DNA from: an uncultured Methylomirabilota bacterium
GTDB lineage: Bacteria; Methylomirabilota; Methylomirabilia; Methylomirabilales; 2-02-FULL-66-22
Assembly: GCA_963705305.1 (NCBI GenBank)
Contig: OY970067.1
Location: 4,032,001 to 4,096,000, forward strand
Direction: 5' to 3'
DNA length: 64,000 bases
Below, piece by piece: positions 7,710-57,960 of this stretch (position 1 is the first letter of the stretch; every line of letters begins with the position of its first letter). A program made the position numbers and the translations under genes. The notes under the pieces are model-generated. The model made no database searches and was not told where the DNA came from. It saw only the letters and a list, made by a program, of their open reading frames with translations.

Positions 7710-8033
7710 TGGTCCACCCCGGGATCACCCATATCAATGGTGTCGCATTTCAGTCCGCGCAAGAAACGCGTGGGGCCGCGCTGAGATGGTTCTCGTTTGG
7801 CAGCAAGGCTTCGGCTCCAGGTCCGCGGTGCGAGTGTGCTCACGCGTGGATGCCGGCCCTTTGAGACTCGGTTGGGCAGAGTGCCAGGTATGTTTCCCAT
7901 GATACCGAGCGGCCGGCTCCCGCTCTGCGACTCGCGTGACCTCGGTCATCGCGACGCTCCGAACGCTCTGATGCCAAGACCTGAAGGCAATGGCTCGCTT
8001 GGGCCGGTGATAGTCGGCACGTCGAATTCTAAC

Positions 8034-8068
8034 TGTGATCACATATATCATTCCTGAGCTGTTGTCAA
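8034..8068 (-). promoter_or_regulatory. Candidate promoter (TTGACA) overlapping palindrome TGTGATCACA, upstream of the GntR cluster
   Basis: TTGACA on minus strand at 8068-8063; perfect 10-bp palindrome 8034-8043. Confidence 0.45.
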
Positions 8069-8198
8069 CACGAAAATGAGGTCGTTTGACCAAACGGAGG
8101 CTGAAGGAGCACTTCCACTTCCGGACCCGCACTCGAGTTGTTTGTGGATTCGCGACCAAGTTGAGTGGCGCCTTTGGCCAGGCACGCCCCCCGTGCTT

Positions 8199-8731
8199 CA
8201 GCATAATTCCTGGCACTATGCCGGGCAAAGCAAGGAGAGGACGTCCAAGTGCTCGTGAATCAAGGATGCCGCCCATATCCGTCCGCACTGTCGCCCGGCA
8301 TAGGTTTCTTGGGATTACGGCTGGTTGAGGAGCGCCGGCAACTCGTCGCAAGCCCCATAGCGACTGGGCGTTCCGTCGGGTGGCGTGGTCTTGGCGAGGA
8401 TTTCCTCCTTGAGTGCGGGGTTGGCCTCGAGGTAGATCTGCGTGGTTTCGACCGATTCACCGTCTGCTGGGAGGAGCCTTCGGCGTGTATCTCAACCGCA
8501 AAGGCATCACTGTACGGACCCAGCGGGCCCTCATGCAGGCGCTGAACTGTTGGGGCATGTCTGGAGAGTGATGGGTCATGTGCCTCCGCCTTGTGGAATG
8601 GGTTACTCAGAGGAGACACCGAACTATGCCGGGCGTGCAACTCTGAAGCACGCCATGGATGGGACAACGCTCGCTCTACCCGGCATAGTCCGGAGGTCGG
8701 CATAGTGCCGGCTATGCTGGGGCCGGCATAG
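8199..8731 (-). mobile_element. Internally deleted RIT (recombinase-in-trio) element remnant
   Basis: RitA-like N-terminus (RLHEGPLGPY) fused to RitC-like C-terminus (ESVETTQIYLEAN..LKEE.LAKT) over 8315-8579; six CTATGCCG/CGGCATAG copies at 8216, 8296, 8624, 8681, 8698, 8724. Confidence 0.65.
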
Positions 8732-8733
8732 CA

Positions 8734-8752
8734 GGCAAACATTTGGCAAACA
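8734..8752 (+). repeat. Direct repeat GGCAAACA x2, candidate integrase arm-type sites
   Basis: 8734-8741 and 8745-8752, about 120 bp from the reconstructed tRNA-Val att core once IS110 is removed. Confidence 0.45.
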
Positions 8753-8876
8753 GGAGCCCCCAGAACAAGGCAAAATAGGCTTGGGCGGGCTGAAAGGCGA
8801 AATGCTTAACTCCTTGACAACAAAAGCCATTCTGAAATAGCCAGGAACGGAATTACTGTTTTGGCCTTGCCTTCTT

Positions 8877-10260
8877 TCAAGAAACTGTGCTACCGGCCGG
8901 AGTGGCCGGCACGAGCTGAAACCCGAGGGCCCGGGCCTGGGCGCGGAGCCGGGATTCGGTCCGGCGCCGGTGGTCGGATTCCGCAGCCGCCAGGCGGCTC
9001 TCGTCATAGGGCTCGTGGGTGGTCAGTAAGTGATAAATGATCCGCGCGAGCTTGTGGGCGGTGGCGGTGATCGCCTTGGGGGCCCCGAGCTTGGCGCGCA
9101 TCCGGCGGAAGAACACCCCGAGCACCGACGGGCTGCGGGACAGGCTCTGGGCGGCGAGCCGCAAGGCCTGCGCCACCCGGTGCTTGACGTGGCGCGTTTT
9201 CACGGACAGGATCTTCCCGCCGGAGATCCGATTATCGGGACAGAGGCCGAGCCACGAGGTGAAGTGGTCATTGGCAGGGAACGGGGACAGGTCGGCCCCG
9301 AGCTCCGTGAACAGGGTGGAGACCGTGGAGGTCTGCAGGCCGGGCACCTGCGTGAGGTCGGTCCCCAGGATCCGGTAGAGCTCGGTGCGGAGATCGAAGC
9401 CCGGAGGGACGGGGATGCCGCGCGGTGTGCGGCGAGACCCTTTGGAGGGTGGGAGCGGGTGCGTGGCGGGATCGATGGTGGAGGCGAACGTGCCGAGCCG
9501 CCGCTGGATCTCCGTCTCGCACTCCCCGATCAGGTGCTGGGCATGGCGGTAGGAGGCCAGCGCCTGGCGGAGCGTGAAGCGGGGCTCCGACCGGGAGTCC
9601 CCCACGAGCGCTTTCGCGATGGTTTCCGCGGAGGCCTTGACGCGGTGGTCGCGGTGGCCGGCCAGCACCTGGGGATCCCGCTCCCCCGCCAGGAGGGCGT
9701 CCAGGATGGCCAGGCCGGTGACGCCGGTGAGATCCGTGAGGACGTGGTGGAGCTGGAGGTTCATCTGGGTGAGCGCCTTCTGCATGTGCTGGGTGGGGGC
9801 CGCGGCGGCCTGCACCAGCCCGTCGCGGTGCCGGAGCAGGGTGCGCACAGCGCAGACCGCCTCGGGCGGCCGGAAGGAGGCGCGGAGGAGACCCACGGAG
9901 TGCAGGTACTGGAGCCACTGGCAGTCCTGGACGTCGCTCTTCCGCCCGGGGACGTGCTTGACGTGGCGCGCGTTCACCAGGCAGACCTCGAAGCCGCGGG
10001 TCTCCAGGATCTGGGAGAGCGGGATCCAGGACCACGCCCGTGGCCTCCATCGCGACCGCGGTGATCCCGCACTGCCGGAGCCAGTCCGCGAGGGCGTGCA
10101 GGTCCTCCGTGAAGGTCCCGAAGCGCCGGATGGGCTCGGGGTTCCGGTCGAGGGGCACGCAGGCGTAGATCTCGGTGGCCCCGAGGTCGATGCCCGCGGC
10201 GTGCGGCTGCAGGATCGGCATGGTGACGGGGCGGGTGGTGCGGGGCAGGCGTCTGGCCAT
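8877..10260 (-). pseudogene. IS110 transposase, one frameshift at about 10030
   Basis: GIDLG, AMEATGV, KSDVQDC, FTSWLGLCP...SGG, ATAHKLARI; the frame changes where GVYW is expected. Confidence 0.9.
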
Positions 10261-10567
10261 GGGGGCTCCTCCAGGTGGGGGGTGAAGGCCAGAACCGGCA
10301 GGCGGCCCAGGTCGTGCCGAACGGCAGGTACTCTTTCAATCGGGATCACCACCCGACGGCGGACCCCCATCGGGGGCGTAACCAGTGACTTGCGCACGCG
10401 ACCTGGCACCACGCTTACAAACGGGCTGAACTCCTCGGCACCAGTCGTATCGGTCGGTGTATTGCTTGCCTCGGCCAGCCATGGTGCCGGTACGATACAG
10501 GAGACGCACGCGCCAGGAAAGTCAGTTTCTTTTGTCATTGCCCCGGCCCACGCGGGCAGGGTCGCGG
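10261..10567 (-). ncRNA. Putative IS110 bridge RNA region
   Basis: Two parallel motifs: CTTACAA-ACGGG (10414-10425, equals the target) and CTTTCAA-TCGGG (10333-10344, equals the element end). Exact RNA ends unknown. Confidence 0.65.
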
Positions 10568-10612
10568 CTTACAAGCAGGGGGTCGGTGGTTCGAAACCAC
10601 CTTCGCCCACCA
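10568..10612 (+). tRNA. 3' fragment of tRNA-Val(TAC), att-like, not a complete gene
   Basis: CTTACAAGCAGGGGGTCGGTGGTTCGAAACCACCTTCGCCCACCA: anticodon loop, T-arm, CCA; no D-arm or 5' acceptor strand. Confidence 0.85.
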
Positions 10613-10623
10613 CGGAACTCTGC

Positions 10624-10670
10624 GGAAACACACACCTCCAGAGAAGGTCACCCTGGAGGTGTGTGTTTCC
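10624..10670 (+). terminator. Perfect 18-bp hairpin after the tRNA-Val 3' end
   Basis: GGAAACACACACCTCCAG-N11-CTGGAGGTGTGTGTTTCC. Confidence 0.65.
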
Positions 10671-10734
10671 AGATCGCTCCCAGTAAGCACGAGACTCCGA
10701 AATAGACGGCACTGCCCGAGATGAGGGCGAACGT

Positions 10735-11433
10735 ATGATGAACGTCCACGTCCTCCAGCACGTGCCCTTCGAGGGGCTCGGCAGCATCGCCCCGTGGCTC
10801 GAGGCGCGGTACGCTAGGATCACGATGACGTCGTTCTATGCCGATCCCAGCCTTCCGACCATGAGCGGACTTGATCTCGTCATCGCGCTGGGGGGACCGA
10901 TGAGCGTGAATGACGAGGCGGCCCTGCCCTGGCTCCGGGCCGAGAAGGCGTTTCTGCTCGAGGCGATCCGGCGCGGCGTCGCCGTCCTGGGCGTGTGCCT
11001 CGGGGCCCAGCTCATCGCGAGCGCCCTCGGCGCCCGCGTGTACCGGAACCCGGTCAAGGAGATCGGCTGGTTCCCGATCGAGCGCACCACCGGGGCCTCC
11101 GATGTCGTGCCACTTCCCTCCGGCCATCCCGTGTTCCACTGGCACGGCGAGACGTTCGACCTGCCCGCCGGCGCAGTGCACCTGGCGCGGACCGCGGCCT
11201 GCGCACACCAGGCGTTTCAGCTGGGGGCCAAGGTGGTCGCGTTGCAGTTCCACCTGGAGACGACCCCGGAGAGTGCGCGCGCGTTGGTCCACCACTGCCC
11301 GGAGGATCTCACCTCCGGTCCCTGCGTCCAATCCGGCACGGAGCTGCTGGCGGTTCCCCCGGACGTTTTTCGCCAAATCCACGCCGGCATGGATCAGGTG
11401 CTGGCCTATCTCGCCAAGCGATGGCAGCTGTAG
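10735..11433 (+). CDS. Type 1 glutamine amidotransferase (GMP synthase-like)
   Basis: LQHVPFEG, LGGPMSVND, GVCLGAQL, HWHGETF, QFHLE. Confidence 0.92.
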   Translation: MMNVHVLQHVPFEGLGSIAPWLEARYARITMTSFYADPSLPTMSGLDLVIALGGPMSVNDEAALPWLRAEKAFLLEAIRRGVAVLGVCLGAQLIASALGARVYRNPVKEIGWFPIERTTGASDVVPLPSGHPVFHWHGETFDLPAGAVHLARTAACAHQAFQLGAKVVALQFHLETTPESARALVHHCPEDLTSGPCVQSGTELLAVPPDVFRQIHAGMDQVLAYLAKRWQL

Positions 11434-11462
11434 GGGCGGGACAAGTGCAGAAGGGAGGTACC

Positions 11463-12161
11463 ATGACTGCAATCGCCTTGATCACGGGTGCGAACCACGG
11501 CATCAGGCTGGAGACTGCCCGCCAGTTAGCCGGGCGCGGCATCCACGTCGTCCTGGGGACGCGCAGGCGAGCGGAGGGTGAGCAGGCGGCGGCGCGGATC
11601 AAGCAGGAGGGCAGCACGGCGAGCGTGCTCACCATAGATGTGCAGGATTCGGCCAGCATCCACAGGGCGGCCCAGGCCTTCACGCGAATCGGAGAGCGCC
11701 TGGACGTCCTCGTGAATAATGCCGGCATCTACCCAGATAAGGGCGTCTCGATCCTGACGGTCTCCCGGGAACAGGTGACCACCACGCTCCAGACCAACAC
11801 GGTCGGTCCATTGATGGTCACCCAGGCGTTCGTGCCCCTCCTGAAGAAGGCCGCCCCGGCGCGGGTCATCAACGTCTCCAGCAGCTACGGGCAGCTCAGG
11901 GACCTCTCCCCGGAGGTCCCCAGCTACTGCCTGTCGAAGCTCGCGCTCAACGGGGTGACGATCCTGCTCGCGAAGGCCTTGGCAGGGGAGCGCATCGCCG
12001 TGAACTCCATGTGCCCCGGGTGGGTCCGCACGGACATGGGCGGGCCCACCGCGCCGCGCTCGGTGGCCGAGGGAGCGGACACGGCCGTCTGGCTGGCAAC
12101 CGAGGCATCCCAGGAGCTCACCGGTAAGTTCTTTCGCGATCGCCAGGAGATCCCCTGGTGA
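11463..12161 (+). CDS. SDR family NAD(P)-dependent oxidoreductase
   Basis: ITGANHGI (G-rich motif partly degenerate), LVNNAG, YCLSK, CPGWVRTDMGG; RBS GGAGG before ATG 11463. Confidence 0.9.
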   Translation: MTAIALITGANHGIRLETARQLAGRGIHVVLGTRRRAEGEQAAARIKQEGSTASVLTIDVQDSASIHRAAQAFTRIGERLDVLVNNAGIYPDKGVSILTVSREQVTTTLQTNTVGPLMVTQAFVPLLKKAAPARVINVSSSYGQLRDLSPEVPSYCLSKLALNGVTILLAKALAGERIAVNSMCPGWVRTDMGGPTAPRSVAEGADTAVWLATEASQELTGKFFRDRQEIPW

Positions 12162-12190
12162 ATGCAGAGGTCGTGCGAGCACGTGATATA

Positions 12191-12249
12191 CGGGACTCAA
12201 AATCCCGCGAGGGTAACCTCATGAGGGTTCGATTCCCTCCCCCGGCACC
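12191..12249 (+). tRNA. 3' fragment of tRNA-Leu(CAA), att-like
   Basis: CGGGA-CTCAAAA-TCCCG anticodon arm, long variable arm, GAGGGTTCGATTCCCTC T-arm, CCCCGGCACC; no matching 5' half upstream. Confidence 0.8.
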
Positions 12250-12389
12250 CTAATTGTGCAATGGATGTCTGGGGTCAGAGGAGCCGAAGGGGCAAGCGGA
12301 AAATGCGCTTGACAAGGCCATCTAGGAAGAGTTAAAAGTGTCGACATTCATCAGTCGGAATCACACCTGTTGTTGCCGGGGGGTACCGG

Positions 12390-13244
12390 ATGAACGCCGT
12401 CACGAATCCTCCGAGGACAGCCTCTCGCGCAACAACCACGTCCCGGGCCTCTGACCCACCGATCCCGTATCGCACGATCGCCGAGCGCGTGGCCGACTGG
12501 ATGCGCCAGCGCATCCTCGGTCGAGAGCTTACGCCTGGCACGCTCCTGCGCGAGGCGCGGATCGCGCGGGAGTTGCAGACGAGCCGGGCACCAGTCCGCG
12601 AGGCGATCGGCCAACTCGTGCAAGAGGGGTGGGCGACCAAGCGGCCAAACCAGAGCGCCCGCATCATTGCTCCCAATGAAACCATGCTCCGAGAGGCGGC
12701 GACGCTGCGCAATGTGCTGGAAGGGTATGCGGCCACGCTGGCTCTAGACCGGCTCGACGAGGAAGCGTATCGCGCGCTCGCGGACATCGTGAACGGCATG
12801 CAACGCGCCATGGCAAAGGGGCAGTTTTCGCGCGCATTCGAGTTGGATTATGCCTTCCATGATGCCGTGATGCGCGCAGCTGGACACCGGATGCTCTACG
12901 AGATGTGGGCGCGGATGGGGATGCATGTCCGGCTCCTGATCTCGGGGACGAACGTCTTGGACCGCGACCTGCGCAGGACCGTGAATCTGCACCGGCGCCT
13001 TCTCACCGCATTTCGACGGCGAGATGTCGTGAGCGCGCGGCAGTTGATGGGGACCCCTCCCCAAGACTTCGAGGAGTTGGTGGCTCGCGTCGCCCCGGTC
13101 GCCGCGGGGCGGTGCAACGCCGGAAGGACGTCAGGTCGGGGTAATGCCGATGCGAGGAAAGGTGGACCGCAGGACGTGGCGGTGGCGGGCGCGCGGTACG
13201 CACGCTCCTCGCAAGGACCCGGGCGGAGGTGGCGGTCCCGCTAA
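12390..13244 (+). CDS. GntR (FCD) family transcriptional regulator
   Basis: IAERVADWMRQRI...SRAPVREA; DYAFHDA; TTGACA at 12309 and a TGTCGACA palindrome upstream. Confidence 0.88.
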   Translation: MNAVTNPPRTASRATTTSRASDPPIPYRTIAERVADWMRQRILGRELTPGTLLREARIARELQTSRAPVREAIGQLVQEGWATKRPNQSARIIAPNETMLREAATLRNVLEGYAATLALDRLDEEAYRALADIVNGMQRAMAKGQFSRAFELDYAFHDAVMRAAGHRMLYEMWARMGMHVRLLISGTNVLDRDLRRTVNLHRRLLTAFRRRDVVSARQLMGTPPQDFEELVARVAPVAAGRCNAGRTSGRGNADARKGGPQDVAVAGARYARSSQGPGRRWRSR

Positions 13245-57214: not shown

Positions 57215-57234
57215 CTTACAAGCAGGGGGTCGGT
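57215..57234 (+). repeat. 20-bp tRNA-Val(TAC) fragment (att core), direct repeat of 10568-10587
   Basis: CTTACAAGCAGGGGGTCGGT identical at both sites. Confidence 0.8.
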
Positions 57235-57719
57235 CACACTTGAATGAGCAGATCACCATTGGTCGGCGTACCCCTCCAAGCGCGGAATTCTACAATTTAT
57301 TTTTGTTGGCTTCGCGATCGCCGGTTGCCGGAAGCAGGCTACGCGCGGTGTGCGCTTCGATCAGGTATGCGCAAGTACGAAAGCGAGTGCTGAGAGGTAG
57401 CGTTTTCGTCAATACCGACAGACACTTCCCTGCGATCGTCCGCGAAACATGGGTGCCGATCCTCCGCTCCTAACCCTCACGCTCCCTCCAATTTTTCCTC
57501 CTCCTGATTGATTGGAGCCCCGGCAAGGCTCGAATGGGGCTTTGACTCCCGCCGGGCCCCGGGCCGCTCCTCACGCCAAATTACGCATCCAGGTTTGAGG
57601 AACATCGGTCCAAGAATCATCGCGGGCAGGGAGGGATCTTCGCCCATCCTCCGGCCCTCTATACGCGGAGGAAATTCGTCATCACCCGGAAGCACCGGCA
57701 CTGAATCCCTCCTCTTGGC

Positions 57720-57960
57720 GTGGTTATAGATGTTCGTGGTGTCCAGGCGGATGTGGTCGAGCAGGGCGCGCACCTCCTCCACGTTGTTGCGCTGCTCGAG
57801 GACCTCCATGGCCCCGCCGTGCCGCAGGGCGTGGGGCTTCAGAGTCGGCGCGCCGATCCGGCGCCCGTAGACCTTGCACAGCCGCCAGCTGTTCTTCCCG
57901 GTCATGGGCCGCCGGATCTTCCCGAGGGACTTCCGTCTCGTCCAGCTGCTCGATCGGTAC
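57720..57960 (-). pseudogene. Tyrosine recombinase C-terminal remnant
   Basis: PHALRH...VRALLDH.RLDTT.IY. Confidence 0.75.

Follow-up and report, generated by a model that had tools for sequence, protein, structure and literature searches.

The window analysed here, a stretch of 64,000 nucleotides (nt) from contig OY970067.1 (assembly GCA_963705305.1) of an uncultured Methylomirabilota bacterium, begins at genome position 4032001 and carries on its minus strand, at 8876–10567, a 1,692-bp insertion sequence (IS) of the IS110 family with CT at both junctions. The element consists of a broken transposase gene preceded by a long non-coding end, and it abuts the 3′ part of a tRNA-Val gene. Here we describe the element, the bridge RNA that its non-coding end is predicted to encode and the attachment (att) site in which it lies. 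Loci other than the window are denoted by L and a number. The element itself comprises the following features.

8876–10567, minus strand: body of the IS110-family element (1,692 bp), from same-genus homology and junction alignment.
8874–8875, no strand: copy of the core dinucleotide at the transposase-distal end (CT on the plus strand, AG on the element sense strand), from the sequence and the L211 and L213 junctions.
10568–10569, no strand: copy of the core dinucleotide (CT) at the bridge-RNA end, the same as the first two anticodon-loop bases, from the sequence and junction alignment.
10033–10260, minus strand: N-terminal transposase piece, residues 1–76, ending ...AMEATGV, from the open reading frame (ORF) and alignment.
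10029–10032, minus strand: frame break, 4 nt in place of one codon (GVYWIP) in intact homologues, from alignment and DNA comparison with L015.
8877–10028, minus strand: C-terminal transposase piece in the other frame, from WIPLSQ... to the stop codon at 8877–8879, from PF01548, PF02371, NF033542 and alignment.
8879–8887, no strand: arm AAGAAACTG of a sub-terminal inverted repeat, partner CAGTTTCTT at 10523–10531, complementary at 9 of 9 positions.

An earlier, sequence-only reading of this DNA had assigned the element to IS110, and profile searches agree: the C-terminal piece matched the Pfam families DEDD_Tnp_IS110 and Transposase_20 (PF01548, E 8.2e-12; PF02371, E 6.4e-10), and the NCBIfam model NF033542 ('IS110 family RNA-guided transposase') scored 188.6 bits in the window and 261.7 bits in the intact relative L212, with a cut-off of 140. 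Intact homologues are 455–457 amino acids (aa) long, and the transposases of L212, L015 and L223 are intact; the window transposase aligns as two pieces, with the break between residues 76 and 77. The same frame break was seen in a metagenome contig, possibly from the source sample, that is identical across 9851–10081. Besides the two pieces, a search of the genome for other family members found a 72-aa remnant and no intact copy. With its transposase frameshifted into two pieces and no intact relative elsewhere in the genome, the element is, to judge from its sequence, dead and can no longer move. The transposases of L211 and L213, the two same-genus relatives with the most similar ends, are also out of frame, with open frames of 360 and 358 aa that end in unrelated tails.

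The boundaries and the CT core proposed in the sequence-only reading are supported by relatives. The genomes of 40 relatives were searched, and same-genus elements of 84%, 84% and 80% identity showed homology that maps to window positions 8871–10570. The far end, ...CAGTTTCTTGAAAG, is common to the window, L211 and L213, and the three diverge directly past the AG (GAG.. and GTG.. in the relatives). The non-coding end of the element occupies 307 nt (10261–10567) upstream of the gene, and at the opposite side the stop codon lies 1 nt from the far end. The arms of the inverted repeat lie 5 nt from one element end and 36 nt inside the other, and the strings AAGAAAC (left end) and GTTTCTT (right end) recur at equivalent places family-wide.

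The element is present once in the 5.65-Mb genome, and one same-genus genome holds six copies of a relative of 76–77% identity. No orthologous empty site was found among the 40 relatives' genomes, in which the flanks matched nothing past the tRNA piece. Contigs of four sequencing runs, which cannot show rare forms, contained neither an empty-site joint nor a circle joint; they held relatives at 85–95% identity and, in run X1, two pieces identical to the window (8820–8984 and 9851–10081), so that X1 may be the source sample. None of the sequencing runs contained more than 0.17 of the sampled words, and no RNA run was listed as a holder.

Bridge RNA fold and guides

The non-coding end contains the following features, all on the minus strand and given in transcript order where they do not overlap.

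10296–10464, minus strand: structured bridge RNA core with two internal loops, from covariance model R1.
10407–10459, minus strand: helix closing loop 1 (10455–10459 with 10407–10411; columns 6–10 with 64–68), enclosing the hairpin 10422–10443 and the target guide.
10444–10454, minus strand: 5′ strand of loop 1 (ACCGAUACGAC), the expected slot of a second target guide, without a match to the window flank.
10414–10421, minus strand: target guide UUUGUA-AG, 3′ strand of loop 1, the same as the abutting flank cTTGTA-AG and pairing with plus-strand CT-TACAA.
10307–10406, minus strand: helix closing loop 2 (10400–10406 with 10307–10313; columns 69–75 with 172–178), enclosing the hairpin 10341–10384 and the donor guide.
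10385–10406, minus strand: 5′ strand of loop 2 plus closing helix, with GGUCGCG complementary to bases 2–8 of the bridge-RNA end (CGCGACC), a candidate second donor guide.
10333–10340, minus strand: donor guide AUUGAA-AG, 3′ strand of loop 2, the same as the far end cTTGAA-AG (8874–8881).

The sequence-only reading had proposed that a covariance model of homologous ends be used to check the RNA. Model R1, built from 27 distant homologues with the window and its four closest relatives left out, matched the window at full length (1–148) with 73.6 bits (E 4.4e-19), and this was its sole match both in the window and in the genome. Covariation establishes the fold: RNAalifold, applied to 36 non-redundant sequences, gave a structure of 27 pairs, with compensatory changes in 16, and 94.6% of cells were paired, compared with 33–45% when partners were slid by 1–3 columns. 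The covariation score of 0.441, against at most 0.103, was reached by 0 of 500 shuffles; these values somewhat favour the fold, which was derived from the alignment on which it was scored. The helix that closes loop 1 was 99.4% paired, with two pairs changed on both sides, and in the helix that closes loop 2 all seven pairs were changed on both sides.

Each loop is built in the same order. Loop 1 contains an 11-nt 5′ strand, the hairpin 10422–10443 and the target guide; loop 2 contains its 5′ strand, the hairpin 10341–10384 and the donor guide. Across the family the upstream end reads CCCG, six variable nt, AG, C.UGG..., a variable hairpin region, UGGUGA, a hairpin, AUCCCG, six nt and AG. Compared with its relatives, the window RNA has one C.A mismatch in the first hairpin, and the 5′ strand of its loop 1 is longer by two nt.

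The guides had been noticed as repeated strings, and these are where the sequence-only reading placed them: on the plus strand, CTTACAA stands at 10414–10420, followed by ACGGG, and again at 10568–10574 in the flank, whereas CTTTCAA stands at 10333–10339, followed by TCGGG, and again at 8874–8880 at the far end, and both junctions begin with CT. Taken by themselves, both 7-mers are fairly common in the 64-kb window (5 CTTACAA for 1.5 expected and 7 CTTTCAA for 3.8 expected), and the weight of the observation rests for this reason on their position in the conserved guide slots (CCCG, six nt, AG). Each window guide agrees with its flank or end at 7 of 8 nt, the first position being the one that differs.

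We then compared guides and junctions across the family. A protein-based scan of one genome per species returned 576 confirmed relatives, from which 79 loci of 48–79% identity were kept; the clade's relatives occur in metagenome-assembled genomes labelled Acidobacteriota, cyanobacteria, Elusimicrobiota, Planctomycetota and others. The guide motif was present in 66 of 87 loci examined. Among the loci with at least 200 nt of upstream sequence, the locus's own target-guide 7-mer recurred 90–200 nt upstream in 45 of 59, as opposed to 23 of 3,656 swapped guide/locus pairs (0.6%), and among those with enough downstream sequence the own donor-guide 7-mer recurred at the far end in 44 of 56, as opposed to 98 of 3,027 swapped pairs (3.2%); the loci include multi-copy groups, and the counts overstate independence to that extent. 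The misses include one-mismatch copies and truncated contigs. The guide–target covariation that the sequence-only reading had called for is thus found, as is the order that it gave, a target-side guide followed by a donor-side guide in the transcript, around a CT core.

The two slots differ in how much they vary. The first guide is hypervariable (33 distinct 7-mers), whereas the second is represented by 21 distinct 7-mers with the consensus UUUAGG-AG; the AG that ends both slots is invariant in nearly all homologues. In four multi-copy groups (A–D) the copies cease to be alike where the guide-matching strings end. For the six-copy relative, with the guide GCUGUU-AG, the four visible left junctions end in cCTGTT-AG or GCTGTT-AG, and five right junctions end in CTTAGA-AG, equal to its second guide. 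The closest relatives carry the target guides UUUAGA-AG and UUUGUG-AG on the same scaffold, and their flanks end in CTTAGA-AG and CTTATG-AG. One genus therefore contains four target guides (UUUGUA-AG, UUUAGA-AG, UUUGUG-AG and GCUGUU-AG), each agreeing with its own flank apart from at most one G.T-type difference. In 28 of 29 and 24 of 29 elements, respectively, the first and second nt past the AG of the target guide are the same as those that begin the bridge-RNA end, in agreement with the rule for handshake guides in IS621 (PMC11208158).

Some loci show a further pattern. In L013, L043, L048, L056 and L211 the target guide resembles the family donor guide, and what appears to be a related element's right end (for example ..cagtttCTTAGAAG|) stands directly before each of the five, in the left flank; L024 is a tandem pair. 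These cases suggest that several family members target themselves or their kin.

The tRNA-Val att site and the origin of the insertion

Three features outside the element define the site.

10568–10612, plus strand: 3′ fragment of tRNA-Val(UAC) that runs from the anticodon loop to CCA and forms an orphan att core.
8725–8873, plus strand: island-side att arm, homologous to the arms of IS-free att copies.
8871–8873, plus strand: three bases, CTT, not in IS-free paralogous att sites, with the boundary fixed by L211 and L213.

As the sequence-only reading had it, the element interrupts a tRNA-Val-derived att core at its anticodon-loop portion: 10568–10612 (window 10568 being genome position 4042568) is identical to the 3′ part of tRNA-Val(TAC) from the first base of the loop. 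ARAGORN called no tRNA at the insertion site; the intact gene lies at genome positions 1744941–1745013 and is the sole TAC gene among 53 tRNAs. The target is thus a remnant of a tRNA anticodon stem–loop, and the 5′ stem strand is not conserved in the window att copy. IS-free copies of the fragment occur at four genome sites, 4031067 (L002), 1634525 (L004), 1630054 (L003) and 843266 (L006), and three of them (L002, L004 and L006) have arms homologous to that of the window. The left flank, 8560–8873, aligns with these arms and ends ...GCCTT, where the others continue ACAAGCAGG. The direct repeat that the sequence-only reading had marked at 8734–8752 as candidate arm sites is present at 8734–8751 (GGCAAAC-N4-GGCAAAC) and is conserved and co-varies in the paralogous arms, as two copies of GGCAAAC in L006 and two of AGTAAGC in L002 and L004. 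Paired direct repeats of this kind fit putative arm-type binding sites. The IS separates the conserved arm from the tRNA-identity block.

Other att remnants show features of their own. L002 and L004 retain the tRNA's own downstream hairpin, and several tRNA-Val(TAC) att remnants lie within ~10–30 kb of integrase matches. A 20-nt stub of the same core is present within the window at 57215–57234 (CTTACAAGCAGGGGGTCGGT), and ~500 nt from it, at 57714–57914, there is a partial integrase match (33.7 bits, profile positions 102–169).

Together, the element is very probably a fossil IS110-family IS that entered the anticodon-loop core of an orphan tRNA-Val att site by bridge-RNA-guided insertion. According to this model, the 307-nt non-coding end would encode an RNA of ~170 nt with two pseudo-symmetric internal loops, each having a long-range closing helix and a hairpin closed by UGG...CCG, directly 3′ of which stands an 8-nt guide of six variable nt and the invariant AG. 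The first guide, UUUGUA-AG, which has the sequence of the flank, would pair with the opposite strand, CT-TACAA, of the tRNA-Val anticodon loop, and the second, AUUGAA-AG, reads like the far end of the element. If a circular form then recombined with the target at the CT/AG dinucleotide that they share, the element would be left with CT on both flanks, as observed. The fold, the guide slots, the agreement of guides with flanks and ends across the family, the boundaries and the tRNA/att nature of the target are shown by the comparisons above. The circular intermediate, the RNA–DNA pairing in a synaptic complex and the strand exchange at the core are inferred from work on IS621 and would operate here by analogy.

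Several results weigh against guided insertion as just described. A single-sequence fold of the non-coding end was no better than shuffles (z +1.09), and an Rfam scan of window 8000–12500 with E up to 1 returned only the tRNA-Leu at 12164–12247 and no match to the bridge RNA. In the integrated copy, no sigma-70-like promoter was found in 8700–10750, a scan that did not take in the joined ends. The independence of the family counts is overstated, as said above, and the pre-insertion site that the bridge model requires is 3 nt (CTT) longer than the sequence ...GCCTTACAAG. The remaining points concern the second strand of each target. In the window, the 5′ strand of loop 1 is complementary to the flank over at most 2 consecutive nt. 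Family-wide, the mean longest run between this strand and the other flank was 3.97, compared with 3.20 in controls; one register was paired at 55.7% compared with 38.2% (z 5.4, in related sequences), and a 5-mer was shared by 4 of 30 own pairs compared with 8 of 866 swapped pairs, both of them weak signals. Scans of columns by position, complementary runs, registers and k-mers gave no second-strand guide that fits the window copy.

Two candidates for such guides were considered. GGUCGCG in loop 2 failed the family test as a second donor guide, and the segment is conserved in relatives with differing ends, so that its complementarity to CGCGACC may be chance. A GGCCUUC motif close to the ribosome-binding site, complementary to the core G and the AAGGC of the flank, was rejected as a guide, being likewise conserved in relatives with other flanks.

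The sequence-only reading had held that the element is programmed for the att core; one 8-nt half-site is indeed matched, but only one strand-guide per loop is demonstrably so. A possible alternative, less favoured but to be taken seriously, is accordingly an off-target, half-site insertion, in which the 8-nt guide found its match, the other half of the target did not, and the att core was not the full cognate site, a match in one half having been enough. The unmatched 5′ strand of loop 1 speaks for it, as do the genome counts: the target 7-mer occurs at 57 genome sites and the 8-mer CTTACAAG at 22, only 6 of which are in tRNA or att contexts, so that the guide alone does not single out att cores. 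Furthermore, the target guides of the closest relatives differ, which gives no lineage-wide targeting of tRNAs, and 'half-match' insertion is reported for IS621 (bioRxiv 10.64898/2026.08.31.748434). Against it, a true match of the family's second target guide could have been overlooked; drift since the insertion may have altered the RNA of this dead element, as its two extra nt and C.A mismatch would allow; and the element sits in a dispensable copy of the sequence, of which there are very few. The 8-mer is also carried by the single essential tRNA-Val(TAC) gene, and this may perhaps be why the sole surviving insertion is in a dispensable copy.

An adaptive role, by which an element tuned to att cores would split the core from the arm sites and so fix the island, is improbable, and the inference of the sequence-only reading that the insertion would lock the island in place is not supported. 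In its favour, the insertion comes between the left edge of the tRNA-identity block and a conserved arm with co-varying direct repeats, and five further fragments of the same tRNA-Val att core exist in the genome. But this is a single insertion of a single-copy, dead element, the other att copies are unoccupied and the relatives target other sequences. The two att fragments at 4031067 and 4042568 enclose 11.4 kb with metabolic genes, which encode an aminotransferase, an RraA-like aldolase, an MR/MLE enzyme, an amino-acid ABC transporter and a GntR regulator. Of 27 matches to PF00589 in the genome, one lies between the two fragments (4031337–4031477), a trace of 47 residues that starts 218 nt past the first att fragment and scores 23.1 bits, below the cut-off of 27.1; no full tRNA that could serve as an intact partner site was found within 1.5 kb of the neighbouring att fragment. 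The segment looks already fixed, which makes locking needless as an explanation and, with only a trace of an integrase left, moot.

A third alternative places the far end 3 nt further out (...GAAAGA plus core AG, with the circle junction ...TTGAAAGAAG-CC..), so that the target would be GC-CT-TACAAG with no extra triplet. In its favour, the four IS-free paralogues and the tRNA itself read ..CCTTACAAG, 3 nt shorter than the empty site GCCTT-CT-TACAAG that the sequence-only reading had proposed and that the bridge model requires; and the flank triplet AAG is, on the element sense strand, a second copy of the three bases that close the end plus core (AAG|AAG). It is nevertheless very unlikely, because L211 and L213 share the end ...CAGTTTCTTGAAAG before they diverge, and because the donor-guide register (CCCG, six nt, AG), which is fixed family-wide, equals cTTGAA-AG. 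With the end kept where the relatives put it, the triplet was either pre-existing in this att copy or duplicated at the junction. A similar repeat is seen in L018, where GAG follows ...AGGAG (GAG|GAG), but not in its otherwise 91%-identical counterpart L020; in the six-copy relative, AAG follows ...AGAAG in three of five right junctions (L222, L223 and L225), at least two of which share a left flank and possibly represent one repeated target. Finally, coincidence of the two 7-mer identities, which their frequency in the window as bare strings might suggest, is effectively refuted, given that both stand in homologous guide slots defined without the window copy and that swapped pairs match at the low rates given above.

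Relation to known systems, significance and neighbouring features

Guided insertion of this kind makes the window element a member of the known RNA-guided IS110 class, with a known mechanism and not a new one. We compared it with IS621 as described in the published accounts. The two share a DEDD/Tnp_20 recombinase; a long non-coding end that lies upstream of the gene; an RNA whose target-binding loop precedes its donor-binding loop, each pseudo-symmetric around a hairpin; and a 2-nt core, read by the guides, at both junctions. An IS621 loop consists of a stem, a left guide, a stem–loop and a right guide; in the right target guide (RTG, G77–G80), the last G is paired to core C8, and two handshake positions come next (PMC11208158); two handshake-like positions also follow the AG of the window's guide. 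The differences lie in the layout. In these accounts, IS621 has long left guides (left target guide (LTG) A50–U58 and left donor guide (LDG)) 5′ of the stem–loop and the core CT on the RNA-sense strand, whereas the matched guides of the window stand 3′ of the stem–loop, in the slots of the RTG and the right donor guide (RDG), end in AG and go with an AG core on the RNA-sense strand. IS621 places its right end (RE) 5′ of the CT core, followed by the RNA-encoding left end (LE) (PMC11208160); the sense strand of the window reads end–AG–start, which departs from the IS621-type layout. The transposase also differs, at ~457 aa in intact relatives and frameshifted in the window copy. The position of the guides and the AG core together give a layout that is mirrored relative to IS621 as published. 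Read on the plus strand of the window, with CT as core, the RNA–DNA geometry is in our reading that of IS621, with the element body inverted relative to the core.

ISPpu10, an IS110-group element of Pseudomonas putida, likewise has its bridge RNA upstream of the gene, and its target lies in a stem–loop-forming repeat, with both base pairing and the target hairpin contributing to recognition, according to a preprint (bioRxiv 10.64898/2026.03.19.712850). Unlike the window element, ISPpu10 is described there with the pairing logic of IS621, a CT core and targets in repetitive extragenic palindromic (REP) elements, the target in the window being the remnant of a tRNA anticodon stem–loop.

In seekRNAs of the IS1111 type (ISEc11 and others), the two target-strand segments are in reverse order relative to the IS110 type, as stated in PMC11187229. 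The guide order of the window is similarly reversed with respect to IS621, and reversed order as such is thus already in print. A 9-nt sub-terminal inverted repeat is also IS1111-like, and one relative, L104, has the same RNA fold downstream of its transposase. Unlike IS1111, as known from its published description, the window element has its non-coding region upstream, which is the IS110-type placement, and one repeat arm 36 nt inside the end; taking guide RNA downstream of the transposase and sub-terminal inverted repeats of 7–17 bp as the mark of IS1111, the window element falls outside that group. L104 came from a metagenome scan for the guide in its scaffold, in which 80 of more than 119 matching stretches were taken and this one alone was a real bridge RNA. 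On its minus strand, at about position 1122 of the reverse complement, it has the same scaffold and an identical target guide UUUGUAAG, with the RNA downstream of a homologous transposase; a match to its donor guide (CCTCATGAG) lies ~250 nt further on, an IS1111-like placement, and the target-side junction is off the contig.

Islands with tyrosine integrases use att sites in tRNA genes, including a sublocation at the anticodon loop. The window site resembles these in its block of identity from the anticodon stem–loop to the tRNA 3′ end, in its conserved island-side arm with paired direct repeats and in having several paralogous copies in the genome, but it is orphaned, interrupted by the IS and accompanied nearby only by the sub-threshold integrase remnant.

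It is unlikely, although worth entertaining, that the clade of these relatives forms a distinct architectural class of bridge-RNA elements, defined by an RNA gene upstream of the transposase, by long guides in the RTG and RDG slots with the body inverted relative to the CT core, and by an IS1111-like inverted repeat and guide order. If it does, the main determinant of specificity would be an extended 'right' guide followed by handshake positions, and a by-product may be the 3-nt duplication of an (N + core) triplet at the transposase-distal junction.

As a dead relic, the element has no evident consequence for this genome. More generally, it offers a clean natural example of bridge-RNA targeting, in which one genome suffices to read both the target and the donor guide and a family of relatives serves to check them, and it shows a 6-nt guide being reprogrammed in nature within a single genus. 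The same 7-nt sequence of a tRNA anticodon loop is used here both by an RNA-guided IS and by integrase-type islands. For tool design, a mirrored family layout could widen the design space, a point that depends on IS621 as published. The mirrored guides and the junction triplet are the points that most deserve specialist attention.

The surroundings of the site hold three further features. Between the GntR gene and the att arm, ~1 kb (7710–8725) is free of Pfam-matching ORFs and contains imperfect repeats of CCGGCATAG. Directly past the tRNA fragment, at 10622–10672, lies a long perfect hairpin (GGAAACACACACCTCCAG...CTGGAGGTGTGTGTTTCC) unlike the one that follows the true tRNA gene. Last, an intact tRNA-Leu(CAA) occupies 12163–12250, 1.55 kb to the right of the att fragment and past a gene for a class-I glutamine amidotransferase (10735–11433).

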